A stretch of DNA of 64,000 nt. Origin: Marsupella aquatica (Eukaryota > Plantae > Marchantiophyta). The notes under the pieces were generated by a model, which was given only the letters and a program-made list of their open reading frames with translations, had not been told where the DNA came from and made no database searches. Made by a program: the position numbers and the translations under genes. The stretch is taken from contig OZ316894.1 of assembly GCA_973895155.1 (NCBI GenBank), positions 22,938,709-23,002,708 on the forward strand, read 5' to 3'. This document shows, one piece after another, positions 9,653 to 63,063 of this stretch (positions are counted from its first letter, which is position 1; each line of letters opens with the position of its first letter).

Positions 9653-9661
9653 TGAGATTTT

Positions 9662-20154: not shown

Positions 20155-20156
20155 AT

Positions 20157-20168
20157 TGGTATCAGAGC
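20157..20168 (+). promoter_or_regulatory. Copia PBS TGGTATCAGAGC (tRNA-iMet)
   Basis: 2 nt after the LTR end. Confidence 0.95.
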
Positions 20169-24800: not shown

Positions 24801-25159
24801 AGTGTATTGCTCAGTCTACTACAGAAGCGGAGTATGTTGCAGCTGCGGAAGCAGCAAAGGAAGCGATTTGGTTGGATAGACTTATCACTGAAATGGGATT
24901 GCCACAGGGGAATGTGAAGCTCCATTGTGATAGTCAAAGTGCGCTCCACCTTGCTGTGAACCAGGTGATGGACAGCAGAGTGAAGCACATTGACGTCAGG
25001 TACCATTTTATCAGGCAGGCTGTGTCTGATAATTTGTTTGAGCTAGTCAAGATTGATGGTAAACTCAACCCGGCTGACGCATTTACCAAAGTGATTCCTT
25101 TGGAGAGTTTCTCTAGACACCGTGACGTATTGCAGGTTTTGCAATTGCATCACAAGTAG
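21887..25159 (+). pseudogene. pol: Copia Pol (PR-IN-RT-RNase H), in frame with gag, one internal TAG at 23615
   Basis: WILDCACSFH, WHSRLGH, IHSDVWGP, RSDNGGEY, PQQNGVAER, YKARLVAKGFTQ, LYVDDML, YVDSDY, KHIDVRYHFIR. Confidence 0.95.
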
Positions 25160-25350
25160 AGTTTTCTTAAACATTCATTGTAATTACTGATATATGCTCT
25201 TCCTCATTCCTATGTATTAGGCTACGGCTTAGTTCTGGTTTGCTCTAGTTAGAGAGGGAAACCGGTTTGGTTTCTGTCCAGAACTTCCCGCTGAGGGATC
25301 ATATACATTGGCAGTATTACTCTCCCCTAGACCAGAGTCAAGGGGAAGAT

Positions 25351-25789
25351 TGTTGGGTATTTACTCTTACGTCTAGGTTAGGTATGACGTGGTTGGTACA
25401 ACAACGTGGGTTGGTACAACTACGTGGTTAGGTACAACTACGTGATTAGGTACAACTATGTGGTTAGGTACAACTATGTGGTTAGGTACAACTATGTGGT
25501 TAGGTACAACTATGTGGTTAGGTACAACTAAGTTGCACACTATATCATAAGAGGCATGTGTGCTTGGAGAGGTAGAACCAAGGCTCATTGTTATGGAGCC
25601 ACTTGAGAGATAGGGAGAGCTTACACTGTGGAGACTCGGTATAGCCGACGGGCTTAGAGTTCAGTAAAGCTCTCTTGTGTGTTCCCGTGGACGTAGCCTC
25701 AAGGAGGTGAACCACGTATCTCTTGTGTCGACTATTGTGCGTTGGATGGTTCATGGGCTTGCCGTTGCGATCGTCGTCTATGCTCAACA
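25351..25789 (+). repeat. Copia 3' LTR (439 bp)
   Basis: Direct repeat of the 5' LTR, preceded by the PPT. Confidence 0.95.
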
Positions 25790-35218: not shown

Positions 35219-38200
35219 TGTAATAGCTGTCTAAATTAGAAACTTAGAAATAATGAATTTTTAAAAAAAAAAATTGTAGTTAGAAATAGATTAAACATAG
35301 CCAATTAATCTACTTTTAGATATAAGTAAGATTAAGACTTAAGTTAGGCAGATTAATGGATAATACCTTGAGTAATTAGGTAGGGGTGAGACGAGTCAGA
35401 AGAAACTACTATCGATGTTCTCGAAGCGCGAAAGGAAGATTGGTGCTGCCAAGTTTGACCGAGGGCGCAAAGAGTGTTTTGGCATGAAAGCGCAACGGCG
35501 TATCGGCGGAAAAGCGCAACAACGCAACGGAGCAAAGGCGCAACAGAGCGAAAGCACAACGGCAGATCAAGTGACATAGACCTCTTCGGATCGATAGTTG
35601 GTGACAACGCCTTGTTTCTTGTTACTATGGTAGACGAAGGGGGAGAGATGACCGCGAGAGGAGTTCCTCTACCTAAGGCCGTCCCTGTGACATGCCCTAC
35701 GATGAAAAGAAGCTTGCATGTTTTGAAGGAAGCACTGGCGGTCATGCACCTGAGTAAATTGCTCACTCTGCCTTGGTCCGTAACTTCATTGAGTTTTCTG
35801 AAGGATTTCAGTGATGGGGCACGAATCAAAGTTGGTATGGTGGGAACTGCTCGGGCGAATCCAGAATTCTGGACTCTGCAATTTGTGCTGATGCTTTCGA
35901 CTGTCCCACCGAAGGTGACAGCTTACACTCACGACAAGGGGAGACTGCGAGGCCTTATTTTTTTGGAACTCAAAACGTTCGCCATGGGTGGAAAATGGAC
36001 CAGTGCACCGACTATACTCTTAAAATCATTTTAGAGTTTTTGATTCCAATTCTCCATCCCATTCAACCACATATGATACCTGTGTCACTTGCCAATACTA
36101 TTGTGGCAAGTTGGAAGGGAGTTGCTCAGATAAATTGGGCCTTGTTGCTAAGACAGGTTATTTTATCTCAAGTAAAGAAGGTGAAAATGGACGAGTTCAC
36201 TACTCTCCCTTCTTATCTTTGCCAATTGTACTTTCATGGGAATTGCTTACTTCCAGGCAAACAAGAGGAGCGGATCAGACTGCTTGATGAATTTGATCTT
36301 AGTGAATCAGGAAACGAGGATACTGAAAGAGAAGATGCTGATGAAGTCCAATTGGAGGTTCCCCCACCTATCTGTTCAGAGGTTACCCCTCTTACCCATA
36401 GAGAACCACTTGTGGAACCCAGAAGAACCTCTTCACCAATTCTTGATAACCCACTATCCCCTTTCGAAGATCTCAACCAGGATAGAAGACTTTACACCCC
36501 CCTCAATTCCAATCTTGATGAGTATACATCCGAGCCAGAACCAGTAGGAACGTCCCCACCTTCTGTCCCTGTAGTTGACATATCTATCCCTAATACCCTT
36601 CGATCACCCACAGTCCCAACTCAGAATTTATCTGTAGACAGCTTGACCCCTTCTATGAGATCCCGTAAGAGACCCTTCATGTTCAGCAAACCAACGGCTG
36701 ATGAACTGAGAGTAGAATCTAATCAGCAAATTATTGATAAGTTAAGCAACTTATTGATCTGTGAACCTGAGGAGATAGTTGACTCTGTTGAGAGGTTAAG
36801 AGCAGCCTCTGTAACTCTACCTGAACCTAGTAGTCCTGACTCTCCATACTCTCCAACCCAAGGTCCGACTCAGTTCTATCCCGAAGTGATGGAGCTATTT
36901 CGACCCACCTCCAATATTAGGGTTACAAATATTACTGAAGTTGAACCAATGGAGGAAAATGATGCATCACCCAGGTTAGAGCTTCAACAGACACTATCTG
37001 CTTCCCCAAGTCACTCTGCTGAACACTATTCTACTCTTGTTAATAAAATGACTGACATGCTGGAGTGTGATGAGAGACACTTAATTGATGTCTTGGATGA
37101 TCTTCTGCATAAGACATCAGCTTTACTTACTCGAGATCATCATCGAGAATATTGTGAGGATTTAGTCCATAGGCTTACACAGATTTTCGGATGCAACCCG
37201 AAGCAAGTCTATTATGCCGTCCGTTATCATACCTCAGCCTCTGGCTCTCCCATTTACTATTCTTCCCCTTCTTCTAGTCATTCACTCACTTCTCCTTACA
37301 GTCCTTCAAATCAACCAGACCAGCTCTATCCTAGTTTTCCAGAACCTGAGATCACCCCTACAGGTGAACATCTTGCCACTTCTTATCTTGACACCCTTCC
37401 ACCAGGTCAAGATAAATCCTGCCAGGTCAATTTCATCCCTACGCTGCATATTGACCCTAAAACCCCTCAGGAGAATATTACACAATTTGCTGAGTTTGTT
37501 AGAGTTTCAGACCTTAGAACTCCTCCCATTCTTGAGTTTTGGCAATACTATCATAAGAAGAGAGTTGAATGTCTCTATATCCTGAAGCTTCATCTGAAGG
37601 ATGTCACCCGCCTAGAGATAGGAGAGATGGATGAGATCTGGACAGAGGCTAAATATTTTTGCCCTATTCTTGCTGTCATAATCCTGGATCCTGTATTGGA
37701 GAATGGAGATCTGGCCCTGGCATACTTCGGGAACTTACCTGCCGATGTCTTGGAATTCATCATCAACTTTTTGAGACAAACCAACAAACGATATCAGGTC
37801 GACCATGGTGTCCTACCAGAGAAACCTTTTATTGTTCAACAATTTATCTCACCAATTGCTGAGAGTCAGAGAATCTGGAACAACATTACTTCCCAGCGGT
37901 TGGCTGAGTACACCCTGAAGTGGCGGGAACTGTTACCTCATGTCACCCCACTTCTATCACTTGCCAAGGACTCTGACACCTTCATCAACAAGTTTCCACG
38001 CAACTACCATACTACTTGTTGTAGTTATGATTTGGTCGGCATCTATATGCAAGCTAGCAAGGTGAACACTATGTTTCATAGGAGACTACTTCCCATTCTA
38101 AATGCTGAACGACAAATCAGGTCTCTTCCATTTGCTCGACATGATACGCAGGTTATGGATTTCCTTCGAGAGGTGATTTGAACTGAGACATTCAGGAGTG

Positions 38201-39724
38201 TTCAACAACCGGATCAGTCAGCACTACTTCAGGAGGATTGACCTACTCCATCCTTCGAGTTAGGATTAGTCAATCTCCACCATTTTTGTTAAATAGTTAA
38301 AGTAGTTAGAAAAGTCTCATACTTTTCAGGAGATAGCCCTTATGTAGCAAACCATACCCTGAAAGTATCGACCAAAATTGACATGTCGTTTAGAAGTTAT
38401 AGCATTTTTAGTTTTGCAGTAGCGTGAGTGCGCAAAGGCGCAACGGCGCTAGTGCTCCAAAGCGCAAAGGCGCAACGGCGCTTCCGACACTTAGAAAATT
38501 TTTCGGAACAGTGTATTTTTTATCCGACAGCAATTTCCATCAATTTTATTAAGGCACTTAGACACCTCAGAAAAGTCTAAAATTTTGGCAGCATGTAGCA
38601 TGTATATAAATCTTCTACCTATGAAAGTTTCACCCCATTTTGACTTTTATGTTAGAAATTAAAATTCTGATAAACTCACTATTTATTAGTTTTACCACAA
38701 AAGTGCAAAAAACACTTTTACTCCAGTTTACACTAGGGATAACTTTTGGTTAGTTTTTCATTCCACCAACATTCTAGTGAACCTTGAGTACTCCTATAGC
38801 ATATTTTCATACTTTTAAACTTTAGTTTATGACCCTTAAGATGTGACAGGGCATGTCCTTTCATTATCTCTTTTCCCCTTTAGTTTTTGCTAACCTATAT
38901 GTAGTAGAGTTTTTGCCACTTTTTGTGTGAAGAAATTTTATGAGCGCTCAGTTGCAAGATTGCAACTTTGTTACCTCCACCTTGTAAAGAGAACTCCATT
39001 GCGTATGACTACTTAATACAAAGGAATTCTTGCCCCTTCAAGTCTAAATGAATGAGAAGTTTGGACCCTTGAAGTAAAATTATTGTGATTGTTAAATTTT
39101 TTGAGTATGTGGAAATAGATTCCTTGTTGGTGATGTTTCACATATTCCTTAGTTCTTGATGCATAGTTTTTGACGTAACATTGCTTGTGCACGGGATGCA
39201 AAGATTGTTACTTACCAATTACTTATGGCTTCAAATTTGATTATGATGGTGTCTCTTATTCGTGACACAAAGTACCGATTGGATACAGAAGTGATTGATT
39301 ACTAGTCTCCACTCAGTACCTTGGAAGGAAAAGTTGAGACATGTTGACGACATTTTAGTAATCATTCTAGTATCGTAATCCTTTCTAGAAATATTCTTGC
39401 GGATATACCACCTAAATCATATCAAATGAAGTTATGTTGAGGAGTCACCTTGGTTGTTTCCTAACTCTCTCACCATACCTCAGGATTTTCATTATGTTTT
39501 ATTAATTGTTTCCATTTGTTAATTTTATTTTTAATATTAAGCAAACATTTAAAACTATGCCTTGATGAGCAACCATAGTAAAAGGCTCAACTTTGTGTTT
39601 TTGTTACCTTACTCATTCATAAGTGCTAAATCATAGAAAATCATTCCTTACATGTTCTTCCATGGGAAGGAATACCGAGTTTTGGATCTTAAATGTTCAT
39701 TTATGTCCCTAGTGTGATACTACA
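35219..39724 (+). mobile_element. H: 4,506-bp gene-bearing solo LTR of an Athila-like family related to G
   Basis: TGTA...TACA ends and 5-bp TSD AAGTG (35214-35218 / 39725-39729). The 3'-end block GGGAAGGAATACCGAGTTT matches G (GGGAACGAATACCGAGTTT). No PBS or pol. Confidence 0.9.
35627..38181 (+). pseudogene. LTR-encoded protein (~850 codons, one frameshift ~35880), homolog of 6028-8457
   Basis: LLTLPW...ARANPEFWT; HGWKMDQCT...EFLIPILHP; C-terminal domain aligned by eye with the G ORF. Confidence 0.85.
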
Positions 39725-41726: not shown

Positions 41727-44700
41727 TCTGGTCCCGGCGTGTTGAGACAAGCTTGGGACAAGCTTTAGGACAAGCTACGCTATTTGGGCCATGAGCATGT
41801 CTTGGGGTCAGGGCGGTCAGTTGGTGATGGATAGGTACGAGGGGGAACCCGGGCCGCGCCCAAGGAAGCTGTCCTTGGACGGACAGTGGGCGTGGGTTCT
41901 GGTTCCAGCTTATGGCATCGGGAGGATCTATTGCTGACCTATTTACCAACGTCTGTTGAGCTTGAGTTAGGATGCTAGATTGGGCGAGTTCTAGATCAGA
42001 GGGGTTACTTACCGAGGTGCTTGGTTGTTTGTGCAGACAGTGAGGACCGTTGAGTGGCGGTCGTGTAGGTGAGCAAGTGCGGCTACGTATGGGAGTGGCC
42101 GTAGGTGGTACTAGAGGCACTTGGATGCTTGCTCGAGGTCTTCCGTAGAGGCGTTCGGGCACCAAGGGCACTTAGGAGCAAGTGCTGGGATTGGTGAGGG
42201 CGCTGGGTGGCGAGGTCCACCACTTGTGGTATCAGAGCAATTGCCGGCATAGACACCGGGCCGGGGTCATGCTAAGTCGGAATCCAAAAATCTTAACGGA
42301 TTTTTGCGGGGACTTAGTGCTTCAACATGCCCGGCGGGTCAACTGCGGGCAGATTTGGTCGCTAGGGACATGGCAAAAAACACTCGTGCAAAGAGTGGCA
42401 AACAGGCTCCCCCCACTAAGGGGAGAGCCCAAGTTCAAGATGAACAGAAGGAGGACAGGTCGACTTCCCTAGATGAACGTTACAAGCAAGATGAAGAGGA
42501 CGCAACGGCCAAACCGTCGACCACTGCGACAAACAAGTCAAGTGCAGAGCGCCGTCAACTTAAAGGGAAGGAGGCGACTGATCCTTCAGAGGATGGGTCG
42601 GATGACAATAACTCCAACGCAATCACAAGCGACAACAACGCTGAAGCTGAGACAGAGGAAGAGGGTCAGGACCCGGAAGAGGAATTGATCCCAGCCTTGA
42701 TAGGGTTGAATGTGGAACCAGAGGATGATGCCGAGCCGGACATCATTGTGGATAATTTGACCAAGTAGAACTAGGATGACGCGGGTGATACCTCAGTCCC
42801 GGGAGGTCATGGTGCTCGCAAGACGCGGGGGGTGTCACCAAAATCCACAAGAGAACCTAAGGACAGGTGGCCTGCAAAGGAAAGACGGTTGGAGGACCGT
42901 CCTCATACAACCCATAAGGGCCCGGCCACTAACGACGGTCTGGGTCCGTTGACTCAAGACCAACGACTCATCTATGAGCAGTTGGAACACAACAAGGGGG
43001 CCCAAATTAAATACTTACTTAGTCTGGGTAGTCAGAGTGTGTCGCGTCCTGAGGGGGGAATGGTAGTTGGACGGAGTATGTTCCAAGTGAACCAGCTACT
43101 GACTCCTCCAACTTACGACGGGGCCTACGAGCAAAGTGGACAAAAGTTCCTGAGTTGGCTCTCCACAATGGAGATTCATCTCCAAGCGTGCGTTGAGCGT
43201 TCCACTTGGGCTACCGCAGCCACTCCTTACCTTAAGGACTATGCCTTGACTTGGTACAAGTCATGGAAGAAGTTGCGAGTGGACTCCTCCTTGCCGTTAA
43301 ATTGGGAAAACCTGGTTGAGGGTCTCCGTGCTCATGTCACCACTAAGTACCCAGAGCGACATGCTCAGAAATGCATAACGGAGATGACTTTCAGGGGTGA
43401 TATCCAAAAGTTCATCACTTATTACCAGAATCAGTTGGCATGTATCCCGGCGGGACAAGAGACCCTACATACACAGCTTCACAACTTTATTGTGAAGCTC
43501 CTGCCATTGCTCAGGGAAAAGTTGCAGGAAAAGCGTCATGAGTTCAAAATGCTTTCTGACACCTTTGACAAGGCCACTATGTTAATGAATAACCGACCGG
43601 ACTTGGCAAAGGTGGGTGGCAAGGGATCCAAGGGGGAAGCTGGGAAGGTCCCGGGAATAAGCAAAAGCAACCAAAGGGGGCGGGGGCCGGTGGTTCGGAT
43701 CCCCAGCCCCAGAATGGAGAAGCTAAGCGAAACCGGAAGGCCGACAACTTTAAGAAAGAAGCCTCATCGGCACAGAAAGCACAAAAGCTGGCAACCATGG
43801 AGCAGAGGCGGGCTGAAGGTTCGTGCTTCACATGTGGTGCCATGGGCCATCAAAGTAAGGATTGTTCCACGAAAGGTGGCAAACCAAACGGAGATGGTGG
43901 AGGGCAGAAGAGCATTAAGGTAAGTATCGCTCTAACCGAACCCTTAGTAGCTGACAAGGTCCTTGTAGGGGATGTCCCTAATGGTGAGAGGGTGTTGTTG
44001 CGAGAGAAGATACCTAAAGTTAAGACAATGGATCCTGAAAAACTGATTTTTATGAATGTCACTTCTAACGGTAATCTGGGTGTTGCTTTGGTGGATACAG
44101 GCGCGACCGCCTGCTTCATAAGTGGGCAGGCAGCAGCTCGTCTAGGGGTGGACGTGCAAGAGTTGTTACAACCGTTAGTGTGCAAGTTTGCCAACGACAC
44201 GAAGGGGATAGTGTCGAGAGTAGTGCATAGACTTCGAGTAGAGGTCATAGGCGAACAAAAAAAAATTGTTAGTCAGGAGATGTTCTACGTTCTAGACGGT
44301 CTAGCCATAGACTTCATTTTGTCGGTAGGTTATCTTAGAAAGCACAATGTTACCTTGAAACCGGGGGGTGAGGTGCTCCATTTTCCCAATAAGGGCGGTG
44401 AGCCCATCGTTGTACACAAAATTACCGAAAAGAAAGAAAGATTTCTTAAAGTAAGTAAAATGTCGTGGATGTCTCCGTGTGTATCGGCGAAGCAATGGTG
44501 GAAAGACTTCAAGGGTGGACATGAATGTTTCTTCTTTCATCTCCACCCAACTAAGGAGGCTGCATCGCAGCCAAAGGTCAAGTCAGCTAAGGTCGGGCCC
44601 GACTGCGGTCAAATTCCTGAAATTTTAGAGAGAATTCAAGGAATTGCGATCCTAAAGGTTTACCCCCGCGGAGAGAAGTGTTTCACCAAGTTGAGTTGGA

Positions 44701-45835
44701 GCCGGGATCGGCTCCTCAGGCTAAAGCTCCTTATCAACTGAACCTGAACGAGCGAATGATGTTGAAGAATGCCTTGGAAGAGTTGATTGACCAAGGGTTC
44801 ATTTGCCCTAGTAAGAGTCCTTACGGGGCGCCCGCGCTGTTTGTGTCCAAAAAGGATGGTATTTTGAGATTGTGCGCAGATTATCGGGCCCTCAATAAGC
44901 AGACGGTAAAGAATAAGTACCCGTTACCTCGTATGGATGACCTCTTCGATTGCCTCTCCGGGGCTAAGAAGTTTTCAAAGGTGGACTTACGGTCTGGGTA
45001 TTACCAGATCCGCATGGCTAAGGGAGACGAGTATAAGACCACGATGCGCACAAGGTTTGGATCCTATGAGTTTTTGGTTATGCCATTTGGGTTGTGTAAT
45101 GCAACCGCAATGTTCATGAAGATGATGAATACCATCTTTCATGACTTGTTAGACCAAGGAGTGGTCGTTTTTATTGACGACATCCTAATCTACTCGAAAA
45201 TGTTGGAGGAGCATGAGCAGTTGCTCAGAGAAGTGTTCTCTCGCCTTCGTAAGGCTCGTCTCTTTGCTAAACCTAGCAAGTGCAAGTTTGCGATGAACGA
45301 GATTCAGTTCCTTGGCCATACCTTTACCCTAGAAGGGATTACGCCTAGTCAAGACAAGCTTAAGGAGATCAACGAATGGGAGCGCCCGTCCAATGCAAGG
45401 CAAGTTAGAGCCTTCTTAGGATTTACGGGGTTCTATCGGAGATACATGAAAGACTATGCAAGGATCGCAAGGCCCCTCAATGTGCTAACGTTGAAAAACA
45501 AAGTGTTTGTGTGGATACAGGATTGTGAATTAGCATTCCTAGAACTTAAGCGGTTAATGATAACGCCGCCGGTTCTAAAGTTACATGAGATGGGGAAGCC
45601 GTTCAAGATTTGGATAGACGCAAGTCATTATGCCATCGACGCCTATCTTCACCAAGATGAGCGTCCTGTGGCCTTCTAGTCATGTAAGTTGGAAAATCAC
45701 TGGATCACGCCAGAAAGGGAAATGTATGCGGTGATCTACGCGTTGAAGAAGTGGGAGATTTACCTTAAGAACGGTCCCAAAGTGGTAATCCACACAGATA
45801 GCTCGTCGGCGGGGTACTTCAGTTCTAAGCCAAGG
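41727..45835 (+). mobile_element. K: chromovirus-like Ty3/gypsy element (LTR 3' part to ~42222, PBS, gag-pol), broken in RNase H by LTR I
   Basis: PBS TGGTATCAGAGC at 42227-42238, followed by gag, PR, RT and RH motifs. Confidence 0.88.
42370..45835 (+). pseudogene. pol: K gag-pol (stops and frameshifts)
   Basis: PPTYDG, LKDYALTWY, CFTCGAMGHQSKDC, ALVDTGAT, LRLCADYRALNKQTVKNKYPLPRMDDLFD, VFIDDILIYS, WIDASHYAI. Confidence 0.92.
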
Positions 45836-47207
45836 TGTGGTATGCCACATATGTAAGAATCCTTAAAAATGGAAGAAGAAATGGTGAAATGATGAACTTT
45901 CAAAACTTTTTGGAGCTTTTTGATTGCATTTAAGTCATTTGGTGACTTGCAACAGGATATCACTAAAGCTCCTATTTATTTGAAAACTTTCAAGAACTTC
46001 AGTTCAGCTTGAAATTTGCAAGCATGATCTTTGGAGTATAATCTACTTGCTGGCACAGTTCAAGACTTTTTGGAGTTGGTTTACTTGGTTTTTGATCAGG
46101 TCTATGTTAGACAATTGTTATATTGGCATTTAATTATATCAAGTTTTAATTAGTTCTACTTTGTTTTACATATTAGTTTTCTTTGAATTGGAGGATGAAG
46201 AGGTATGTCTTTTCATCTTTCCAAGGATATCCTTAATACTTATTTTGGTTAGTTTTTGGTTTTCAAGGAGTGAAAAGTTACACCTTTTCATTCCCTCTTG
46301 ACCATCCTTGCTTGAGCCATTATATAAGGAAGGGTGATACACTAGTTAGATAAGTTAGTTCTTGCATATCTTAGCCAAAGAGATTGTCCCTTTGACACTG
46401 ATTATGGAGACATTTAAGACATATTTTGAATGTCGCTCCTTAGGTGAAGAAAAGGAGACTAACTTCCTTCTGTATTAGATTCCATGAGGAATTTGGATAT
46501 GGAAGTAAAACTACATAAATACATGTGATTTGTATCTTGGATCATAGATAGCATTGGTTTGATATCCAATATATGAAACTCTTTCCTTATGAAACTCTAG
46601 AGTTGTCCAAAATATCTTTGACCATGTATGATTGTTAATAATTTGTGGAAGTCTAGAGGGGAATTCATTTCAAGCTTTCTAGGGTAAAAGTCCATTCTCA
46701 TGAGTTTTAGTACCGCCATTGGCAAACAAAGACTGATAGCATTCATACCAAGTTGCGCATCGCCAGAGTATTGAATCCTGTTGCCGGCAGTTTACTAGTT
46801 GGGACTGCGCATGATATCCAGAAAGATCTTTGTGGGCTTGGTGAACTAATACTAGAAGGAGGAGAAATGAGAGTATAAATTTAGGAAGCAGTCAGAGAGG
46901 GGTTTTGTGTACCTTTTAACATCTTAAAGTGGCTATATCTTTCGATAAGCTATGGTGATGGAGGTAGTGCAGTGTTGAAGCCTGATTTTAAAAGTCCTAG
47001 AGTTATAGTCTATGAAAGAGAATTATATTTCCTTGTCTTTTGTTAATTGTGCATTTTGGTTTCAAATGTGTAAGAGGTTGAGTTTCCTCGTTAAACCACT
47101 CATTTGTGTTAAAATATTCCATTCCCATTCTGTTTTGCTCTTTAGGGGAACGAATTCTGAGTTTTTACTTTTATTATATGCATTTTATGCATTGACCCTA
47201 TACCACA
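45836..47207 (+). mobile_element. I: 5' LTR (1,372 bp, no long ORF) of another Athila-like element
   Basis: TGTGGTA...TACCACA terminal inverted repeat and PBS downstream. Shares blocks with the G LTR (GAGGAxxTGAAGAGG.ATGTCT; GGGAACGAAT..GAGTTT). Right end not found in window. Confidence 0.85.
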
Positions 47208-48814: not shown

Positions 48815-50329
48815 TATCTGGGGGAAAAATATGGTTCTTGAGGAAGCACCGGGCCTATGGCTGCTAGTGTCAAGAGAGAACTTAAATTAAGATCATGATT
48901 ACTATTCTAGACTGGGTAGCAGACACCATAATGAATGGTTCTGTGGATGAAAGCACAACATCATAACCCTTTTCTCCATACCTACGGACTATTGCTTCCT
49001 TGGCAGCTACCTTGGGTCGAGTTACAAAACAAATATCTCCCAACAAAAAAGAAATGGGAGGTTTGTCGGAAGGAGATTTGTTGAGATCCATCTCAATACA
49101 AGATAAAAATTGTGCAAGCCCAATCCTGCCCGTAAACTACATAAGGGTATACAATTGACTCTATTAAATTTAACACCGCAGTTGTAAATGCTTCTTCAAA
49201 GTGAAAAGTCATATGCTGACGCATTATCTCTTTTTGGAGTACATAAATTCTAATAAGGAAAGGATTAGGGAGAGGATGAACAGGTACTGGTCTGGGCATT
49301 ATCATAATATCAAATATTCCACTCAACTAATATACATTCTAATGACAAGATATAGAATCATTCAACGAAAAGATTATTCATTTCAAACAAATATTATGCA
49401 TTGAGTTAACTCTAAGTATATACATGCAGATGTTTATCTTAATAAGTTTATCTTTTTTTGAATGAAAACACTATCTGAAGGTCCAACGCATACAAATTAC
49501 CACTGATTGAGCTAAGCTCCAAGCCAACGTGCATGCGTGGGTCTACTTCATAAGGGTTTCACCCAAAAGGAGCACATGATGTTAAGGTATTGTTGAGCAT
49601 TTTGCAATTCTTTAGGACTTAATAACCATCTCATATCAAATGATAACACTTTTTGAAGGTCCAACTCATACAAAATATCTTTGGCCGAGCCAAAGCTCTA
49701 AGCAAGCGTGTATGAGTGGGTCTACTTCATAAGGGTTATATTCATAGAGGGGGTCATCAAGTCCAATGGATTCTCAAGGCTTCACAACTTAGTTGATGAA
49801 AGATGGGGAGTGAGGGGAGAGAGCCCCTCTCCTCTTTATTTATAGTGCTCACACCTTAAGCACACGGATCAAGCATAGCACACGGATGGAAGCCATGTAT
49901 CACACATCCAAGGCAAGTAAGTGTGCTAGTACTGTGGTTACGTGAGTGGAGCAACTATAGATAGTACACTGTAGCATGCACACTGTAGATTATACACTGT
50001 AGCATGCACACTGTAGGTCGTACACTGTAGCATGCACATTGTAGATCGTACACTGTAGCATGCACACTATAGATCGTACACTGTAGCATGCACACTGTAG
50101 GTCTTGCACTGTAGCATGCACACTGTAGATCGTACACTATAGCATGTATACTGTAGACCATATACTATAGCATGCACTCTGTAGATCATACACTATAGCA
50201 TGCACACTGTAGATCGTGCACTGTAGCATGCACATTATAGACTACATATAATGCGAGAATTCAAACTACTATCCTATACTACTAAGCTATACTTAGGAGG
50301 AACTTACTAAACAAAGAATTCTCACGACA
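48815..50329 (-). mobile_element. J: 1,515-bp solo LTR, E1-like style
   Basis: 4-bp TSD CCGC (48811-48814 / 50330-50333). Ends TATCTGGGG...ACGACA versus E1 TGTCCTGGG...ACGACA. Shares the CCCTC..TTATTTATAGT block. Flanks rejoin colinearly with the paralog at ~50735-51170. Confidence 0.75.
49965..50242. repeat. 28-bp tandem repeat (TACACTGTAGCATGCACACTGTAGATCG, ~10 copies, 14-bp sub-period) inside J
   Basis: Read directly. Confidence 0.92.
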
Positions 50330-51180: not shown

Positions 51181-53769
51181 ATGTTAAGACCCTCCAAGAT
51201 GTCGGGTGAGTTGTACACTGCTCGCACCACTCCCGGTGCTGCCTGCCCGCTGCACAGCCCCAACTACGATTAATGTTTTGCCACCAGCCCCATGTCCATC
51301 GACGGAAACTTTTTGTCGATTTCAAAATGGGCAGGGAGCGATGCGGTACAACCCCGCGCCACACACACCCTGCATCCACACTTTGTGCCAAAACTGAACT
51401 CCGACAGAAACACTATATGCACACACCATGCTGCAGGTTGCAGGGAGCTTGTGAGACGACCAAGACAGTGAGAAGTCTGACTTTCCATTTTTTCATACCA
51501 ATCTAAAATACTTCTCGGTCTCATAGAATGCGGTCAACAATTAGAGCCTCGATATCCACCTACGCTCTTTGGGGCTTCTAAAAATGGTATGTATGTTTTC
51601 TTTGTTGTTAGTCATTGTTTTGTATTTTTGGACTGAGACAATCTCAGTCCAAAGTTCAAATTTGGTTTTCTTTCTAAGAGTTGTATTTGTTGCACTTGCA
51701 GAATTGAGACCTTGTCCCATCAAGCGGAAGTTGCTGATTTTGGATCTTAACAAAATACTTTGGGATTCACTTGAATTCCAAAGCAAGGGCAAATCCAAAA
51801 ACATTGTGACCCCAAATGGAGTGCATTGGAATAGATCAAATGGAACTACTCGCATGTATATAGAGAGGCTAGGGCTCCATGAGTTTTTAAAGTTGGTTTT
51901 TGACCAGTTTGACATTGCAATTTGGACATGTGCTGGGATGCCGCGGACAGGGAAAATGTTGAACATGATGTTCACTGTTGAGGAGCGGTTGAAACTGAAG
52001 TTTGTATTCACACAAGTGGAAGCCTTTGACACAGGCATTCAAAGGCGTGACATTACAAATGGAAAGGCAAATGTGCTATTGAAGGATTTTTGGGTGGTAT
52101 GGAGTGCATTTGGAAATCTATATGATGAAACCAACACACTCCTTGTGGATGACTCCCCTCTGAAGGCATTTGCCAACCCAGACATGACCGGACTATTTCC
52201 AGTACCCTACACGCATGCCAATCGCGGAGACAATTTTCTTCTAACAATTCTTTGGCCATGTCTTGAGAAACTGTCACATGCAAGTGACATTCGTTGTTAT
52301 CTTCTCCTAAACTCTCCAAAGTGGTCTCTATTGCACATTAAGAGAGACAAGGCAAAAAATGAGATTACTTATGATCAACTTAGTAAGAGATGTGCAACAA
52401 AAATTTGGAAGTCACAGTATAGGCATAGTGTGCTTGTGATGCCTAGCCAGGAATCACTAAGCCCGGTTTACATGGTAAGCAGGAGTGTACCCTGGAAACA
52501 CCTTAGTATAGGACCAAAAACAAGGAAAATATAAACAAATTAAGGATGACTATGGAACCCGGGCCGAGGCCGGAAGTAAGGACACCGGGGGAGAGAACAC
52601 GATTAGGGTTAGGGTGCGCTAAGCGTCGGCGGCTAGGGGTGACCAACGGGAGGGGAGACCAGAGGAGGAGAGGGGTAAGGACCGCTCGCGAGGAATAGTG
52701 GCTCATTTGCAAGAACGAACTGGGCAGACAACTACGGGAGGCCAAATGCTGTCACCTATTTAGACAAGCACTTGGGGTGGGAACAGATACCAATGATCGA
52801 CTCAAGGAGGGTATGAGCAACATCAATCAAGCAGCACATTTTTGGGGATGCCTGTTCAAACGGGCAGGTGAGTACGTCAGGACTTACGAGAACGAAGAAT
52901 CAGAGAGAGCAGCTCGAGAACGGCAGGAGCTCGCTCGGCTCTGGGAACTCCAGAAGATGGCTTTCTTAGGAGAAGAACTTATCAAGGTGGAGTTCTTGTG
53001 GACTCCTACTGCCAATCAGCTTGACAACCTTCTATTTTGCGAAAACAGAATTGTCGGCATCCGGGAAGCCATCAATCGCTGCAACGACCTACACTAGGAG
53101 TTGAAGAGTAACACGGAGGGGTAGACAAAGGCAATCTTGCTAGGAGAAACATCCATGGCAGCCAAGATGAAGAGGAAAGGAAACAACAACAAAGAGGCCA
53201 CCCCGGCAAAAAGAATGAGGTCAGCGGCACCTAGGAAGCCAGCAGAGCAGCCGAGCAGGACAAGGGGAGAAGCCAATGAGGAAGAGGTTGATCCCATCAA
53301 TGCCATTCCAACAAACGATGACACCTAGAAAGGCTGGGCGGCGACCCTACCGGAGGAAGTGCAATTACACTTTGCACGGGAGGAGGATGCATGCTTTACA
53401 GCCATGCAGACCAAGAAGTACCAAGGCTTCATGGCCGGATCCGGCTTGGAAGCCTTCGTAAGATTACCATGGCTGAAGCCGGAGGTGCCGGACTCAGACT
53501 TGTTAGAATTCGTGGGATCATGGGAACCCGAGACCAATTCCACAAGGGTGTATGGGAAGGATTTCTATCTCACTCCCCAGGTGATTGCTGAAGTGTTTGG
53601 CTTGCCGATGGGTAATAAGACCAAGGTTGATACCAGGAAGACCTTACCTGACAAGGAGTTTTGGTCGTTCCCAGGACCATCAACAAAGAATGGCTTCTTC
53701 CGGAACACCTGCACCAACCTGCACATCGGAGAGATGATTGATTTCTTGCGAGTGACCATGCACTGTAAC

Positions 53770-56700
53770 TGTGATGCCATGTCAGGATCACAAAGTACTT
53801 AGTTAAGCCTAAAATAATGGCTAAATAAAGATTAGGTAGATATAATTAGGGAGTTATAAAGATCGAAGCCGATTTCAATATGTTCGGGGGAAATTGTGAT
53901 GGGATCTGATCCAACGGTCGTGATTAAGTGGGATTAGGGTTATGACCTAATCAGGGCTTGATCACGCAAGCCATCAGGAGGCGGCTTTGTAGGGAGGGGA
54001 CCGACACTCTGTACACTAGTGCAATTGCTTGTTCGATCAACCTAGAGAGGTGGAATCAGCTGCCGATCGAACGGGGGAGGTGGTTTGAGAAATTGCGCAG
54101 GTTCTTGGCATTCAGTGGAATGAACACGGTGAATCAGGCAGGGAAGTTTTGGGGCTGTTTGCTTGAAGAAGCAAGGCAGCTGATACCTACGTATGAAGAC
54201 GTTGAGCCAGAGCGCACAGCCAGAGAATGAGCAGAGCTTGCACGATTGTGGGGAATTCACAAATTGGCATTTGTAGATATGGAGGAGGTATTGGAAAAGT
54301 TCTCGTGGACACCCACCAGTGCGGAGCTTGACGAATTGCTAATTCGGGAGAATAAGGTCGTGGGGATCAGGGAGGCAATCAAGAACGTCGGGCAACCACT
54401 TTGGGAATTGAAGGGTCACATTGCAAAGTGGACGAAGGCAGCTATTCTTGGGGAGTATTCAGGCGCTGAAGAGATGAAGCGCAAGGGAGGTTCGACATCT
54501 GCAACTCCAGCAAAGCAAACTAGGTCAGAGAGACCAACAAAGATGGAATCCGGGCCAATTAGAGATCGGGCTGTAGAAGATAAAAACATGACAGGGTGGG
54601 CGAACAGGTTACCTGCCGATTTACAATTACAGTTCGCAAGAGATGAGGATGAGGTCTTCAGTGCCGTTCAGGATAACAAATATGCAGGATATATGAATGA
54701 CACTGGGTTGGAGGGCTTTGTCAGGTTGCCCTGGAGAATGGTAGACATACCGGATGAGGATCTGTTGGACTTCGTGGGATGCTGAGAGGCTTCTTCCAAC
54801 ACAACGCTGCTGTATGGAAAGGTATTTGAATTAACTCCTGCGCTCATCGAAGCCGTGTTCACTTTACCAACAGGAAGGAAAACAAAGGTGGAGCAGAAGA
54901 AGACGTTGCCAGACGACCAGTTCAGGTCATTTCCAGGGCCTTCCACTAAGAATGGGTTTTTCAGGAATCAATGTACCAACCCACATATAGGGCAGCTGAT
55001 TGATTTCCTGAGAGTCACATTGCATTGTACCTTGCCGAGAGCAGAAATCGGCAAAGCCCAGGTATTTTTGGTAGAGAATATCAATGCAAGCCGAGACTAC
55101 AACGGCTATCTCTTAATGCAGTTAAAGAAGGAATTAAACAAAGAGAAGTAGAGCATTGGGGAGGGAGCGGTATCCAGACTAGGGTACCATCTGCAATTGC
55201 TTTGCTGTTATGCAAGAAGCCAGTCTTTTGCACCAGTGTTGCCTATACAGGAGCGGATGCAGATCACTGCATCACTTGAGGAAGTGGAGGAGGACGAGGA
55301 GCCTCTAAACATACGACGCCACGGGAGGAGGTTGACAACACAGGCAACACGAGAACGGGAGCATTCCCCTATCAAGGAGCCAGAGGTAGTAACATATGAT
55401 GTAGTGAGAAATCCGTTACGTCGGCCTACTCGCAATAATCCATATGTAGGCATCCAGTTGGTCGAGAGGAAGATGACTACCGAAGAGAGAAAGAAATATG
55501 ATGAGCAAATGGATTCGGAGACAGACGAGGAGGTAAGCTGAGGCCAGGAGAGGCCGGTAGTAAAAGCTTCTAACAGAGTCCAAGTGAACGGATCCGTGCT
55601 GGAAGGTCAACCAGCTGCAGCCCAACAATTTTCAGAGGAGGAGATTGGGGGCTTTGGAGGAGAGGCCGACATGTTAGGTAGTCAGGTCAATGTGGATGAT
55701 TACGATGACGACTATGTCGATCATGGGGAGAGGCCGGTCCCAGGAGTTAGAACGATGGGAAGGTTTTGTAGAAGACTTCCCGCAGTCTTCTATGGCAAAC
55801 CGGAGGACCAGAAAATACCAGAATCTCCTCCACCAGATGTGACGCCATTGGAATTCGACAAAATGAAGGAAGCTGAAGCCGAGCTACATGAGAAGATTAA
55901 GGAGTGGGGGGCCCGGAATGCAGAACACGAATGCCAGCTACCAGGAGGTGAGTGGCCAGAAGGAATAAGACGGCTTAGTGAGAGGCAAGCCGAACCTCTC
56001 ACTAACTTTGACCAATTACGGGCTGAAGCTTGGGAGAGACGACCTCGATGGCAGATGCCAGTATCACCTAGGAGGTCAAACTATGCAAGAAATCGGGCTA
56101 AGGAGCATGTGTGGACTCTTAGCCTTAGAAATCTTCGGCAACGAGTTAGAATCCGGGTCATTTCTTAGAAAAGAAATGGCTGATCAAACGAGACTGGAGG
56201 AGGCAATAACATTGGAGCGATTGAAGAAGGAGGAAGTAATCACTTGGCTTCGCTCCATGGAGGCCGAAGTTGCTAAGACAAAGTCTGCTCAACCAACTCA
56301 GCAGGATCTCTTGGCTAGGCAGCAGGAATTGGAGGTGGCAAACAACCAATTGGAAAACTACCAATTGGATAACCAACAGATCAAGGAAAAGTTGACGAAG
56401 ATAGAGCTGGAGTTAGCCGATTCAAAAGTAGAGGTATAGGGTTTAAATCGCCAAGTTGAGAGGCTCAAAAAGACGGCTAAGGAGTAGGCCACCCAGAGCG
56501 AAAAGGCCTTGGTAGAAGCCCAAAGGAAGTATGATAAGTTACTCGACCGGTTGGAGACCATGCGTGAGAAGCATGATGACGCCATGTGCACGGCGGCCAA
56601 TGATCACCTAAACCGGGTTCAACAGATATGCAAGGAGCTTTAGGAGGAGCTAACCAGGACAAAGCAGGCATGGACGAACGAGGTCACAAAACTAGAAGGT

Positions 56701-58392
56701 ATCAACGACTCCTTGAAAGCAACCGTAGATAAGCAAGAGTTGGAGATCGTGCAGATCTTAAATGAGGAGTTGAAGACGGCCAGGGCCGAGATACTACGGC
56801 TTAACGATGAAGTTGAAGACGTATCTCAAGAATTGGAGGATGCCAAGGATAAGATGATCGGGCTGCAGAGGCGTGCCGACAATCAAACGCAGAAATTGAA
56901 GAAGTATGCCAAAGCGGGATATGGGTCACCAACTGAAAAGCTTCCCGACAGTAGTATGGTAGGCGGAAATATAGTGAAGCCGAAGCTGAAGCCAAGCTCT
57001 CTGTTGTCAAGTGTGACTGGGGGCAAAGCCATGCAGTTGGTGGCAGACTTGGCAAAGACCTTCATGGGGCCAGGCGATAATAAAGTTAAAACCCTTAAAG
57101 CCACTCCGGAGGAAGTCAAGAGCATGGTTGCTCACATTTGTGGTATTGTGGCCTTGAAGGCAGCGGTGGTAGAGGTAAGTATTGCGGATCAACTTGGAGC
57201 TGTGGTAACAGGTTTAGACGATGGTACTGCTTCTATGGACACACAGAACGTGAAACCATGGGTTATCGAGACCGAGCGCATCAGGGAAAAGGCTTGGATT
57301 GAGGAAGTTAAGGCAAAGGCTCTCCAAGCCGTTTCCCAGGAGGATGCGGATGCGGATGCAAATGCAGATGCAGATGCCGATGCCGAGACTGATGTCGGGG
57401 CCGGAAAAACAGAAGCCGAGGGGGTCGGGCTGGGGCCGATGGCAAGAGAAGGTGTAGAGTCGGAAGATTCGGACTTACCCCCAGTCATCTGACAATTAAG
57501 GAGGGCCAGTAATCGGTTGGAAGGAGGACGTGGCGGCAGGAGAAGGGCTTGGGCCAGAAGGGCGCGGCCGTTGTAGGATGGGACAAGGCAAGTAGCGCCC
57601 TGTCGGCTTAGATTGTAAGTAGATGCTCGGTTCACACAGGGTTCCAGGCTATTCAAGTTTTTAGGTGATAGTTTTTTTTGGATTATCGCGGTGGAAGGCC
57701 GTGTTTGGTGGTTAGGATCTCTGTTGTTGAAGCGCTGCAAGGATAAAAACCTGGGCAGCGTGGTTCCGGGGGCTTTTTCTTAGTCAAGGCTTTAGTGTTA
57801 ATCTGTAGTGTTGTAAACATAGGAAGCTCTCGGCTAAATCTAGACCGCAGGGTATCAGTAAACCACCAGTTCCCTTGGATTTCTGAGCAATTGTTTGAAT
57901 TGAGTTGGCCTCGTTGCATAGTTCGCAGATTCTTGCCATCCAAGAAGTTGAGTGTTATGATATCTGTTGCTTGATCGATTTGAGTAAGATAGGGTGAACT
58001 ATTGAGCAAAATACAATCGCATGGCCTTGATTGGAGACTGCCCAAATCAAACTCTGAGAGAAAAGTGAGGATTGAGAGTGTCAGTCGGTGAAGTGTGGGT
58101 TGAGTCAGTCTGAAAAATACCTTTAGCCGGCTTAAGAAATTAAGCCGTAAAGGTACATTCCGGGGGCGGAATACAAATATACCTGAAGAAGTTAAAGAGG
58201 AATTAGGGGTCTCAGTTGTGCACAATTCACAAGCCCAGTGAAAGAATCGGTCCGATAAGTGTGGACCCAAGGAGAGAATCGCGTTTCCAAGCTGAATAGC
58301 TACTGCAAAGGAGAGAGGACCGACATAACCAAGTGGTTTATGATCGGTTGAAGGTAGTTCTTGGTGTTAGAGGTCTTGGGAATCGCGCCACA
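53770..58392 (+). mobile_element. C: 4,623-bp diverged relative of A/B nested inside B
   Basis: TGTGATGCC...GCGCCACA ends and 5-bp TSD GTAAC (53765-53769 / 58393-58397). Confidence 0.9.
53958..57492 (+). pseudogene. C-encoded homolog (~1,175 codons, multiple stops, frameshift ~56105)
   Basis: GLEGFVRLPW, FPGPSTKNGFFRNQCTN, PESPPPDV, LPGGEWPE, LQRRADNQT and C-terminal PPVI are all shared with A/B. Confidence 0.85.
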
Positions 58393-61300
58393 GTAACTTG
58401 CCAAGGGCAAAGATCGGCAAGGCTCAGGTCTACCTGGCAGAAAGGCCAGACCCAAGCCGGGATTACAACGGGTACCTCCTCAACCAATTGAAGAAGATCT
58501 TGAAGGAGGAACAACAGGTGATCGGCGTGGGAAGCGTGTCCCGGCTTGGCTATCACATGCCGCTGTTGTGCCGGTATGCCAGAAGTCAAATCTTTGCCCC
58601 AGTGCTTCCCCTATCGGCAAGGGCACCAGAGGAGGTCCCAGAGCAGAGGCCGGCACCAGAGAAGCCCAACCAGCCCGACAGTCCGACGATCGAGCAGGTG
58701 TTTAGGCCAAGGAAAGAAGACTTGCCGATGCAGCAACCAGGCATGAAAAATCTGCTGAAATTGCTGGAGGAGGAAAGGAGAACGGTTCCGGCTCCGGCAA
58801 CGGCAACGGCACCGATACAGGACGCTGCCCCAGAAGTTGACCTAAGCCGACTCAGAAGGGAAGACCCCTTTACCGGAACCAAGGAGAGATTGAGGCCGGA
58901 ACACAAGCTGGGAGTGCAAATGTACGTGGGAGCCTCAAGCCCCGAATCTGAGGCAGAGGAGCCAGGCGTCCAAGAAGTGGAGGAGGCGGTGGAGGACTAC
59001 AGCAATGATAACTCCGGCTATGGGTCGGATCATCATGTTCCAGGAATAAGGACCTATGGCCGATTTATCCCCACACTTCCAAGAGTAGTTCGAGGGGACC
59101 CCACCCAGCAGAGTAACCCCGAGTCTCCCCCACCAGAGGTTGCTCCCCCAAGCTTTGACGGCATAAAGCAGACGGCACAAGAATTTCAGGAGCGACTTAG
59201 GGAGGAAGAGAGAGCAGCCCTGGCTAGGGAGAAGGATTTACCAGGAGGAGATTGGCCGGAGGACATCAAGCGGCTTGCCAAGAAAAGAAGCAACCCTCTT
59301 GCCACCGTAGAAGAAATCCGCAAGACGGCTTGGGAGCAGAGGCCGCGGTGGTTGATGCCGATGACTTCTAGTTACTCCACCTATGCTAAGGATAGAGCCA
59401 TGGAGTACGGGGAGATGTGTGGGGACCTGGCGCTCAGCATCTTTGGGGAGGAGTTGGAGCAGGGACCCTTTTTCCAGAGGGAGATGTTGGAAAAGCACCA
59501 ATTAGAAGAAGCGGTGGCTTTGGAGAGAAGCAAGAAGGATGAGGTCATCCGACGGCTTAGGGAGAAGGAAGCTGAGGTGGAAGACCTGCAGGCGGCCAAG
59601 AAATCCCAAGATGAGTTGCGGATTAAGCGGCATGAGCTAAACATCATGCAGGGGCAGTTGGATACCGCTCAGTCTGACAATCAGATTATCAAAGATAAAC
59701 TGACTCGGACCCAAGGAGAGTTGGCCGGCACAGTCAAGGAGAGAGAGAAATGGAAGCGGGAGCTAAGGGATGCAGAGGAAGCCCACTTAGCAACCAACAA
59801 TCGGGCCATGGCGGAAAACCAGAGAAGGGAGAGGGCATTGAAAGGAGAGCTCGAAGATATCCGTGGAGCCCTTGAGCAGAAGGAAGCAGAGTTAGGGAAA
59901 TCCTATCAAGGGATTATTGCGCTACAGCAGGAGCTTGCGTCCCTGACGGCCAGCTTCAAGGCCGACCTGCGTGAAAAGGACGACCAGCTCGACCAGACTT
60001 ATGCCAAGATGAATAAGATGGAGTCTGTGGTCGTCGCAGAGCTCGATAGGGAGCTAAGAACAACCCAGGAAGAGAGGGCTACCTTGAAAAAAGAATTGGA
60101 GGAAGCCAATAAGGAACTGGAGGAGGCGTGCAAGGACCTGGACGAGACCCAGGAGGAGTTGGAGGAAATCACGAGGAAGATGGAGAACCTACAGCGGCGG
60201 GCCGACAACCAAACGGAGCGGCTGAAGACACAAGCCGCAGTATTTAAATTGTTGGCTTCATCAGGTCCAACTCCAATTGGTGGAACCCAGTTACCAAGGG
60301 TAGTATTGGCCGAAGGACAAGCCGTAACACTCACCCCGGGGTTGGAGGTAAGTGGCAAGGGGAAGGAACCGGCTGTCGAAATAGGGAAGAAGAAGAAGCG
60401 GAAACCCTCTAGGTCTGGGAGTTATACGGCTTCTCAAGCCATTGTGACCGAGAAGATAAACCCGGCACCAACCTCCGGCATCGGCACGGTAGTGGATCCA
60501 CCAGTCCTAGGAAGTGGAGATGGCAAGCCCGAAGCCGGGAGAACCAGTAATGCTGCCGAGGTACCAGATCCTCCACTAGAACATGTCGAGGAGGCCGTAG
60601 CTGTAGCAAAGGCCGTGACCGATTTTGAGGCTGAAGCCGAGGGTGGACCCAGTCAGGCCGATGAAGAGTTGACTCGGTCAGGGGCAGGTAATTTGTCAGA
60701 GGACGGACCAACGGCAGTGGCTACAGAGGAAGCGTTGGGGGCGTCCATTGAGGACCAGCCACCGGTGTCGTGACGGTGTAAGGGCGCCGTCCCTTTTAGG
60801 GAGGGCGGACGTGGAGGTAGGAGGCATGAGTGGGCAGGGCGGGCACTGATCTCCAAGTTTAGACTTAGGATCAGGATCAAGAGACGGCCCTGACACTTAG
60901 ATTAGTGGGATTTTGGATCCACGGGTGTGGACGACACTTGTACTCCTGCCTCGTTGTAGTTAGGTAGATTACAGTAGGTAGATTAGGCTTACGGTGCAAG
61001 GAATTAGGCGGATCCACAACCAGGATAAGTACCTGGGCTGCGGGGAGTTCAGGGCCTCTTCCTTAGCAAGTTTCTAGTTGCACCAGCAGGGCTGGGATCA
61101 AGTAGTAAGAGAAGCTCTCGGTTAGTTATACAGTGACCCTTGTATATATTCATGTTTCCTCATACTTAAGAACTGAATAGAGTTGGCCTCACGGCTTAGT
61201 TCGTAGAGCTTGTGTATGAGATGTACTGGTTGTATGGCAAGTGCATGGTATAACTCAGTCAGAAGGAGTCATTTTGCTATTTGTGTGTCGCATTAACTTG

Positions 61301-63063
61301 TGTGAAGAGTGCCCACATCAACTAATAGAGGAATAGAAGTAAGCAGGGGAGTGAGAGTTGGATGTGTCGAGCTGAGAGAGGTCTTAGCGGCTTAACCAAG
61401 CCAATTGGGGATCATTCTGGCGGCGGAATCCAAACATACCTAATGAAAGACCAGGAGAGGAATACAAGGGAGGGACTAGAATAGGCCGGCTGAGTATCTC
61501 ATGACCCGATGAAGGATCTGTCCAGTATATGTGTGTAAAATGTTAATAGAGGATTAGCAGCGTCCCATGCCGCTAAACCGCGGAAACGGCCTCGCCAAGG
61601 ACGAAACCTACGGGAATCGGCTTGAGCAAGGGGGTTTCTTGGGTTTGGGGAGGCAGGGGACGCACCACAGTGCTGGACCTCAATAGCAATGAGATTCCTT
61701 GGGCTGTGAAGCACCGTATATGTAGCTTACGTCCTGAGGTGGAACTTGACGATGCACTTGTCACCTCACTTGCTAGATCATTTGTAGGACGGGAATATTC
61801 AGGTCTGTATAGAGAAAATCCCAAACACTTTTTGCGAGAGATTACAGCAGTTAGGAACAACACCACCAAATTTCATCTCCCTGAAGATAAAAGGAGTTGC
61901 AACCGTGACATTAGGGTAGATAGTAAAGGAGACAAGGGCACGTGCTCAAATAAATATTGTAAGGAGCACTTTGTTTAGAGATCTGACTCATGTTAAGCCC
62001 ATTAGATAGTAAAAATGGGTGCCAGCCATGGATATTCATTGTAAGTTTGGACACAATTGTAAATAATTATTTTCACACATTATCAATCAATGGTCCTTGC
62101 CTGGGCTTCTTTGTGCGGAAATGTTTTTACAAGTATGATCTCTATCCCATGGTTCTTTGTGAACTAATAAGTAATATAATACTATTATAATTAATATAAT
62201 ATAATTTATTAATATAATACTAATAAGAATTGGCCTATAAAGTGTACATTTAGGTATCAAAAAGTGTACATTTGGGCTTCTTAAAGTGTACATTTCAGGA
62301 CTGATTTGTAAACAAAAGAAAATACACTTTTAATTAATAGACTGATGATTGAAGCCATACAACATGAAATTCATTCCACCTACTATTGCATGCAGATTCC
62401 GCCCAACCTGATTGGGCAAATGCTGGTAATGATGAGTTTCAATGTCCACCAGGATAGACATGGGTTGAACCAGGTTGGGAGGATGATGATGGGTCCTGGA
62501 ATCAACAAGGCTGGGAAGGTGGTGAAGGTAATTGGCAACGCTTTCAAAATACAGTACCTACGAATGGCGGAAGAGGGGCAGGTAATGTATGAAGTAGTTT
62601 GCAATGGAAGAACTCATTTAATCTGTGGTCCATTCATGTGGGTATACTCTGTACATGTACAATGATAGGAAATGTATGTGTGCACGTTGGACAGTCGAAC
62701 CGTCGATGCAAGTATTCACTAATGCCCCTATGCAGATGCAGCACGGAAGGGGGACAGGTATTTTGGAATGTTGACTTGTTTCCGTACAGTGTACTAATTT
62801 ACTAAGTTATCAGTACATATGTTTGCACATGCCTAGCTAGAAAGTGACAACATCTGTGCCTTGTACTAGGCTGGACAGGTGGTCCAAGGTTGCAACAATT
62901 CCAGAGTGCAGTCCTTGCACAAATGTCTACTGGCAGAGCTACAGGTATATATGTTGGTTGCATTTTTGTTAAAGAGATGCATTGAATGGTGCCAATAGGT
63001 GTTTGTAATAAATGGTTATGGTGTATATAGTTCTCAAGCATGAATGGCATTGTATTTTCCCAG

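Follow-up and report, generated by a model that had tools for sequence, protein, structure and literature searches.

Introduction

The accessory open reading frames (ORFs) of Athila- and Tat-group Ty3/gypsy retrotransposons are described as lying between pol and the 3′ long terminal repeat (LTR) in those parts of the published sources that were covered here, to which all statements about described elements below refer (PMC7264820, PMC11963269, bioRxiv 10.64898/2026.03.20.713144). In Athila, a clade of the non-chromovirus OTA lineage, the accessory domain is internal and downstream of pol and the LTRs measure ~1-2 kb (bioRxiv 10.64898/2026.03.20.713144); a sunflower Athila accessory ORF with PF20167 contains a predicted nuclear localisation signal (NLS) (PMC11728184). 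Here we analyse a 64,000-nucleotide stretch of DNA (the window) from the liverwort Marsupella aquatica (assembly GCA_973895155.1, contig OZ316894.1, positions 22,938,709 to 23,002,708, forward strand), in which two units of about 4.6 kb, B and C, each enclose the decayed remains of one long gene. By analogy with another unit, D, whose related gene stands in the 5′ LTR position of an Athila-like element, B and C are most probably solo LTRs of Ty3/gypsy elements with an accessory gene inside a giant LTR.

Three other described systems bear comparison with these units. The accessory products of the Tat elements Retand and Grande (TRP28 plus an SMC-like coil) likewise combine a conserved N-terminal domain with a coiled coil, are GC-rich and contain no enzyme (PMC7264820, PMC11963269), and the Grande protein is nuclear (PMC7264820). 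Unlike the genes described here, those ORFs are antisense and internal, belong to elements whose LTRs span ~0.4-1.2 kb among the table rows covered, and are described from flowering plants only (PMC7264820, PMC11963269); a Pfam scan of the window's proteins gave no match to PF04195. The long-LTR family Retrosat2/RIRE3 (LTR >3 kb) offers multi-kilobase LTRs and abundant solos bounded by target-site duplications (TSDs), with 429 solo LTRs to 162 complete elements; its extra ORF0 lies upstream of gag-pol, apart from the LTR, and the covered text does not describe its LTRs as coding (PMC3485330). Because non-chromovirus gypsy LTRs of up to ~5 kb and extra ORFs have already been described (PMC6317226), elements of this kind are known. 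In layout only, the units also resemble sag/naf of mouse mammary tumour virus (MMTV), where an accessory ORF lies in the U3 region of the LTR with its own U3 promoter (PMC9412291); MMTV is an animal retrovirus, and we claim no sequence relationship.

Results

B and C are nested insertions

Unit B, the outer insertion, occupies 52435-53769 and 58398-61669 (+) and measures 4,607 bp net; unit C (53770-58392, +; 4,623 bp), likely a solo LTR, lies within it. A preliminary description of this DNA had given these coordinates and lengths, the TGTG...CACA ends and the 5-bp TSDs correctly, and is amended here in that the units are nested rather than side by side. The two units have their first 9 bp in common (TGTGATGCC) and CCACA at the end. 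B is flanked by GTGCT at 52430-52434 and 61670-61674 (+), identified by TSD search and an empty-site joint, and C by GTAAC at 53765-53769 (+), inside B's ORF and likewise supported by an empty-site joint, and at 58393-58397 (+).

Because chance pairs of TGT...ACA ends with a 5-bp TSD are common (more than 100 are listed within the window), independent support was needed. With C and one TSD removed, B's reading frame rejoins, and the frame of B's target, which encodes a NIF-phosphatase-like protein, rejoins across B. Public contigs contain an empty site of B, seen as a 9,240-bp skip with one TSD remaining (4 of 4 runs), and an empty site of C, seen as a 4,628-bp skip with one TSD remaining (3 of 4 runs); these joints may stem from paralogous copies of the target repeats rather than from the window locus. 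Together, the common termini, a colinear protein, the rejoined frames and the empty sites confirm that B and C are true insertions.

The target of B (51584-52434 and 61670-61900) is a high-copy repeat whose NIF (HAD-family) phosphatase-like product is recognised by Pfam at E 2e-13, and is probably a transposon-borne gene. The TSD GTAAC is common to C and to D (5624-5628), and that of B also begins with GT, reflecting either target preference or chance.

A third copy had been proposed, unit A (1-2964, +), which is the right part of a B-family copy: it is 83.7% identical to the right part of B and ends in CACCACA, with its left end beyond the window edge. The B/C-type family consists of many diverged copies, with 9,039-29,816 contigs per run matching the stretch and spread across all identity classes. 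In 4 of 4 runs, contigs cover B much more deeply than C; this depth is no copy number. A contig joint from 53414 to 52435 (run X1) suggests that a further B-family unit has inserted into a B-family unit near 53420.

B, C and a further unit, E, combine TG...CA ends with TSDs in the 4-6-bp range at both ends (GTGCT, GTAAC and AAGTG, respectively), and have no primer-binding site (PBS), polypurine tract (PPT) or gag-pol at or in the unit. Downstream of A, B, C and E a PBS is missing, as is a purine tract upstream of B, C and E, which is what solo LTRs should show. The earlier statement that B and C encode no mobility enzyme holds for the pieces scanned, on which Pfam gave only weak matches below cut-off.

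A long gene, once under selection, fills most of each unit

In B the ORF begins at ~52546, within the 5′ part of the unit (52435-53769, +), where the conserved domain starts at ~53440. It resumes beyond C at 58398-60773 (+) with the end of that domain, an acidic and proline-rich linker, a coiled coil (~59450-60200), the motif KKKKRK and a low-complexity tail. The ORF of C (54117-57492, +) has its domain at ~54700-55200 and its coiled coil at ~56140-56900. These ORFs span ~1,200 codons (78% of the unit) in B and ~1,125 (73%) in C, close to the three quarters first estimated. The reading frame of the protein of about 1,150 residues then proposed is broken in every copy: the 5′ part of B has 4 stops in 410 codons and its 3′ part none in 792, C has 7 stops along with a frameshift near 56.1 kb, and A (2-2053) has 2 stops in 683 codons. 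That A, B and C all lack an intact ORF fits decay after insertion. KKKKRK, noted earlier as NLS-like, is present in A and B and absent from C.

The B and C proteins are colinear, with 53% identity over the first 319 aligned residues, then 38% and 30%. Between A and B, the ratio of nonsynonymous to synonymous substitution (dN/dS), obtained by Nei-Gojobori counting with Jukes-Cantor correction, is 0.33 over 668 codons (bootstrap 0.26-0.42), falling to 0.18 in the coiled coil and rising to 0.53 in the tail. In the comparison of B with C, saturation is reached at synonymous sites (proportion of synonymous differences, pS, 0.78-0.84), with nonsynonymous differences (pN) at 0.21-0.37. The dN/dS of 0.33 and the low pN indicate that the source elements held the protein under purifying selection. 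The comparison among copies suggested in the preliminary description thus speaks against neutral conservation of the ORF.

Each ORF is followed by a non-coding trailer, of 896 bp in B (60774-61669, +), with a TATA-like box at 61143, and of 900 bp in C (57493-58392, +); both trailers would hold the promoter, R and U5. The A and B trailers are 92% identical (815/885), compared with a pS of 0.32 at A/B synonymous sites, and have motif blocks in common with the trailer of C. A trailer better conserved than synonymous sites points to cis-acting signals, as expected of an LTR. RNAalifold analysis of the three trailers was uninformative (covariation term -1.48), and no tRNA genes were found in the window.

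A gene-bearing unit stands in the 5′ LTR position of an Athila-like element

Unit D (5629-9652, +; 4,024 bp, TGTG...TACA) contains an ORF of ~890 codons with one stop (5785-8457). Nine nucleotides past its CA end lies a PBS (TGGCGCCGCTGCCGGGGA; 9662-9679, +), and there follow an ORF of 286 codons (9958-10818), in the position of a 5′ extra ORF and with no convincing Pfam match, and gag (11592-13310, +), to which Pfam gives matches narrowly below the curated cut-off for Ty3_capsid (E 9e-6) and Retrotrans_gag (E 5e-5) and a weak one for zf-CCHC. D's last 61 bp recur at 100% identity at 14107-14167 (+) as a 3′ LTR remnant, and the TSD GTAAC (5624-5628 and 14168-14172) encloses the whole element, 5629-14167. 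The gene-bearing 4-kb unit of D therefore occupies the 5′ LTR position, followed by PBS and gag, with its last 61 bp repeated and a single TSD enclosing the element. D is most simply read as the 5′ LTR of an element from which pol and the greater part of the 3′ LTR have been lost.

This element resembles Athila in its PBS, which, as in unit F, is of the Athila type (TGGCGCCGTTGCC, taken from the ATHILAfinder preprint) and follows a short AT-rich spacer, with 12/13 positions matching in D (9-nt spacer) and 11/13 in F (bioRxiv 10.64898/2026.03.20.713144). It also resembles Athila in its 5-bp TSD and in a domain close to PF20167/PF03078 by language-model features. It departs from the described Athila plan of an internal ORF and 1-2-kb LTRs in having its ORF upstream of the PBS, in a 4,024-bp unit. 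In this window generally, the gene lies in an LTR-type unit of 4.0-4.6 kb, comprises 850-1,200 codons and falls below the Pfam cut-off.

Unit E (35219-39724, +; 4,506 bp, TGTA...TACA, TSD AAGTG) has an ORF at ~35630-38181 with one frameshift and splits a gag frame whose two sides rejoin when E is skipped. Its trailer is homologous to that of D (score 85 against a shuffle mean of 26, 0/200 shuffles), and E would most simply be a solo LTR of a family related to D's. B, C, D and E are alike in layout, each with a short lead, an ORF filling 57-78% of the unit and a non-coding trailer of 0.9-1.5 kb. Unit F (45836-47207, +) is an ordinary 1,372-bp LTR with no ORF of ≥150 amino acids and the same type of PBS at 47214. 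A derivation of the D and E trailers from an F-type LTR was considered and did not emerge, since F aligns with D over a 30-bp end motif only and with E not at all.

A protein domain links B and C to D and E

In tblastn, the N-terminal domain of C matches the ORF of D (E 9e-6), which in turn matches the ORF of E. The similarity withstands shuffling for C against D (z=14) and B against D (z=10; 0/1000 each), and, B and C themselves apart, none of the 1,272 window frames matches better than D. With the partial piece of E used, C against E is weaker (z=3.8, 5/1000) and B against E is not significant (35/1000). An exhaustive protein search with D's domain returned 321 relatives; a family profile built from 128 of the 150 listed outside homologs, leaving D out, was searched against all six frames of the window and matched only D, E, B (independent E 9e-5) and C (independent E 8e-8). 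In hhalign, the B/C rows aligned with 56 homologs at 93% (E 3e-7 over 110 columns). A charged, coil-like middle is also found in many long homologs. At the DNA level, the ends of A, B and C match one another (z 15-87) and not those of D, E or F, which sets B and C apart as a separate family; they may belong to an OTA lineage other than Athila.

Among the named ESM Atlas clusters retrieved with D's domain, PF20167 (Transposase_32) accounts for 24/30, and a set that includes PF03078 (ATHILA; 17% of members) for 5/30, so the domain appears to resemble, distantly, the PF20167/Athila accessory domain. An Atlas query with B's half-domain returned nameless Streptophyta clusters, with DUF1985 as a weak lead. 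Protein searches based on word indexing came back empty, which reflects their sensitivity given the 321 relatives found by exhaustive search. A cluster look-up of 10 of the 150 listed homologs gave none with a name, no loci were found in metagenome and viral contigs, and the family profile has no relatives in the PDB. Structure prediction gave models of low quality (mean pLDDT 48.6 with D alone and 33.1 with the three-row C/B alignment), and Foldseek with the D model returned nothing at E 0.001 or better.

Other elements in the window

A full-length Ty3/gypsy host element (3137-41722, -) has LTRs of ~1,360 bp at 98% identity, a PBS at ~40355 and the 4-bp TSD CCGT, which fits the NCGN preference given for the moss element Phygy (PMC6317226); it carries all nested units between 5.6 and 39.7 kb. 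Its integrase frame is interrupted by a Mutator-like insertion of 25.5 kb (5571-31105) with a 9-bp TSD (CGTATAGAC) and loosely matching inverted ends, which holds ORFs at 15.6-19.4 kb (-) and 27.2-29.7 kb (+), four of which were scanned and gave no Pfam match. A young Ty1/copia element lies at 19698-25789 (LTRs 99.5% identical, tRNA-Met PBS, TSD AATGG), and a tandem array of 28-bp period occupies non-coding DNA at 49954-50250.

At 42227-45835 a chromovirus-like gag-protease-reverse transcriptase region, with a tRNA-Met PBS at 42227 and gag-pol at 42.8-45.8 kb, is cut by LTR F. It was considered as a parent of A, B and C and set aside, its LTR end not being homologous to their trailers (z 2.6 at best in nine comparisons).

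Discussion

A retrotransposon turns the sequence that follows its PPT into U3 and places a copy at either end. A giant LTR could therefore have arisen when the PPT, the site of plus-strand priming, came to lie upstream of an accessory gene normally placed between pol and the 3′ LTR. Each LTR would then receive the gene during reverse transcription, and the parent's integrase would generate the TG...CA ends and the 5-bp TSD. B and C would be LTRs like D and in the same orientation, with the gene in U3 and the promoter, R and U5 in the 0.9-kb trailer. Their parents were likely non-chromovirus Ty3/gypsy retrotransposons of the Athila/Tat group, and B and C the LTRs left by LTR-LTR recombination: exchange between the two long repeats would have removed gag-pol and left one gene copy per insertion, which later decayed. 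Expression of the accessory gene may have relied on the 3′ LTR portion of the genomic RNA or, as in MMTV sag, on a promoter of its own.

Several observations weigh against this solo-LTR reading. No B- or C-family copy is seen beside a PBS, PPT or gag-pol among A, B and C in the window, and the 3′ LTR of D is reduced to 61 bp with pol gone, so that two full giant LTRs around gag-pol are never seen, even for D. The TATA-like box of B is not conserved in A or C. The DNA ends of A, B and C are without homology to those of D, E and F, and only ~110-135 protein residues of B and C align with D, at 22-27% identity; the analogy from B and C to D consequently crosses families. As to the domain itself, the PF20167 link lies below the Pfam cut-off, with 0 matches for D, E, B and C; Pfam reports PF20167 in 1/56 homologs (E 0.005) and 1/60 (E 0.014), and the Atlas feature counts (164-167) fall just under its guide of 170. 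With direct Pfam support this weak, PF20167 is a lead, not a membership.

Because B and C copies are not seen with internal domains and two full giant LTRs are not seen together, the units could be self-standing, descended from such LTRs or from the accessory-gene region and now moving singly, LTR-less, on a borrowed retrotransposon integrase. All B/C-type copies seen fit this picture (two complete, one cut by the window edge), as do the near-equal lengths and identical first 9 bp of B and C despite saturated synonymous sites, the very large number of matching contigs, the insertion of the family into itself (C in B, and the joint in run X1) and ends unrelated to those of D and E. Solo LTRs nevertheless account for each of these points, as the excess of solos in Retrosat2 illustrates (PMC3485330), D shows the same kind of unit acting as an LTR, and no route is evident by which a unit without repeats or PBS would be reverse-transcribed; we consider such passengers improbable. 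The preliminary description had offered giant solo LTRs and a new class of integrase-mobilised passengers side by side; D and E support the former, and a new class is not needed.

Ginger-like and other integrase-type DNA transposons have TG...CA ends, short TSDs, terminal inverted repeats and a DDE transposase. B and C share with them TGT...ACA ends, 5-bp TSDs and an imperfect terminal inverted match (8/10 in B, 7/10 in C), and might be non-autonomous members carrying a captured retrotransposon accessory gene. This inverted match ends after the first bases, however, and comparison of the first 300 bp with the reverse complement of the last 300 bp stays at shuffle level in B, C, D, E and F; Pfam identified no transposase on the B/C pieces scanned, and the homologous gene sits in retrotransposon LTRs of the same window, making a DNA transposon most improbable. 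Equally hard to credit are internally deleted retrotransposons, whether short LTRs around an accessory ORF as sole internal remnant or recombinants that keep the outer ends. D itself suffered a large deletion, so such events do occur in the window, and Retand has internal accessory ORFs of similar architecture, a conserved domain with an SMC-like coil (PMC11963269). Yet no direct repeat above shuffle level joins the two ends of B, C, D, E or F, which tells equally against TRIM and LARD elements and against the short LTRs that the preliminary description had thought could undo its proposal. Two families with saturated synonymous sites would moreover need the same deletion, and in D the whole ORF-bearing unit stands upstream of the PBS.

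What the protein does in the solo-LTR reading we can suggest only tentatively. With its PF20167-like domain, coiled coil and, in the A/B family, basic patch, it may act in trans in the nucleus, promoting transcription of the element or countering its silencing; we favour a nuclear role by analogy with the nuclear protein of Grande and the predicted NLSs of Athila accessory ORFs. The nuclear or chromatin role suggested in the preliminary description is plausible on this analogy with plant accessory ORFs, with the NLS-like motif lacking in C. A bolder scenario, which we regard as rather unlikely, is that several Ty3/gypsy families in this plant lineage made a gene cassette of the LTR: each integration or LTR-LTR recombination would leave a full 850-1,200-codon gene, young solos would be expressed and act in trans as anti-silencing factors or helpers, and the B/C cassette might even stand by itself without a gag-pol parent.

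Plant LTRs are, to our knowledge, normally non-coding, and what is likely new here is that at least two families of one genome, unrelated at the DNA level, would have a once-selected gene of 850-1,200 codons within the LTR. No plant LTR with such a gene is described in the literature searched, a partial coverage that leaves outside it the REXdb supplements, which may list such elements, and the covered parts of PMC13468544, PMC12844716 and PMC1560396 mention no ORFs in LTRs. Pipelines that expect LTR ends 1-2 kb from the internal region, as ATHILAfinder does by default, would overlook elements of this sort (bioRxiv 10.64898/2026.03.20.713144).

If the solo-LTR reading is right, the presence in one genome of gene-bearing LTRs (D, E, B and C) and a gene-free one (F) would provide a test of what the long-unexplained Athila/Tat accessory proteins do. 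The nef gene of human immunodeficiency virus overlaps U3, and the units would be a plant counterpart, as far as layout goes, of U3 genes in retroviruses such as MMTV sag. Solo LTRs count as a non-coding end state, reached when a retrotransposon is eliminated; here, removal of the element would leave a gene behind. One protein gene could thereby reach very high copy number, pass as a host gene family and be open to domestication.

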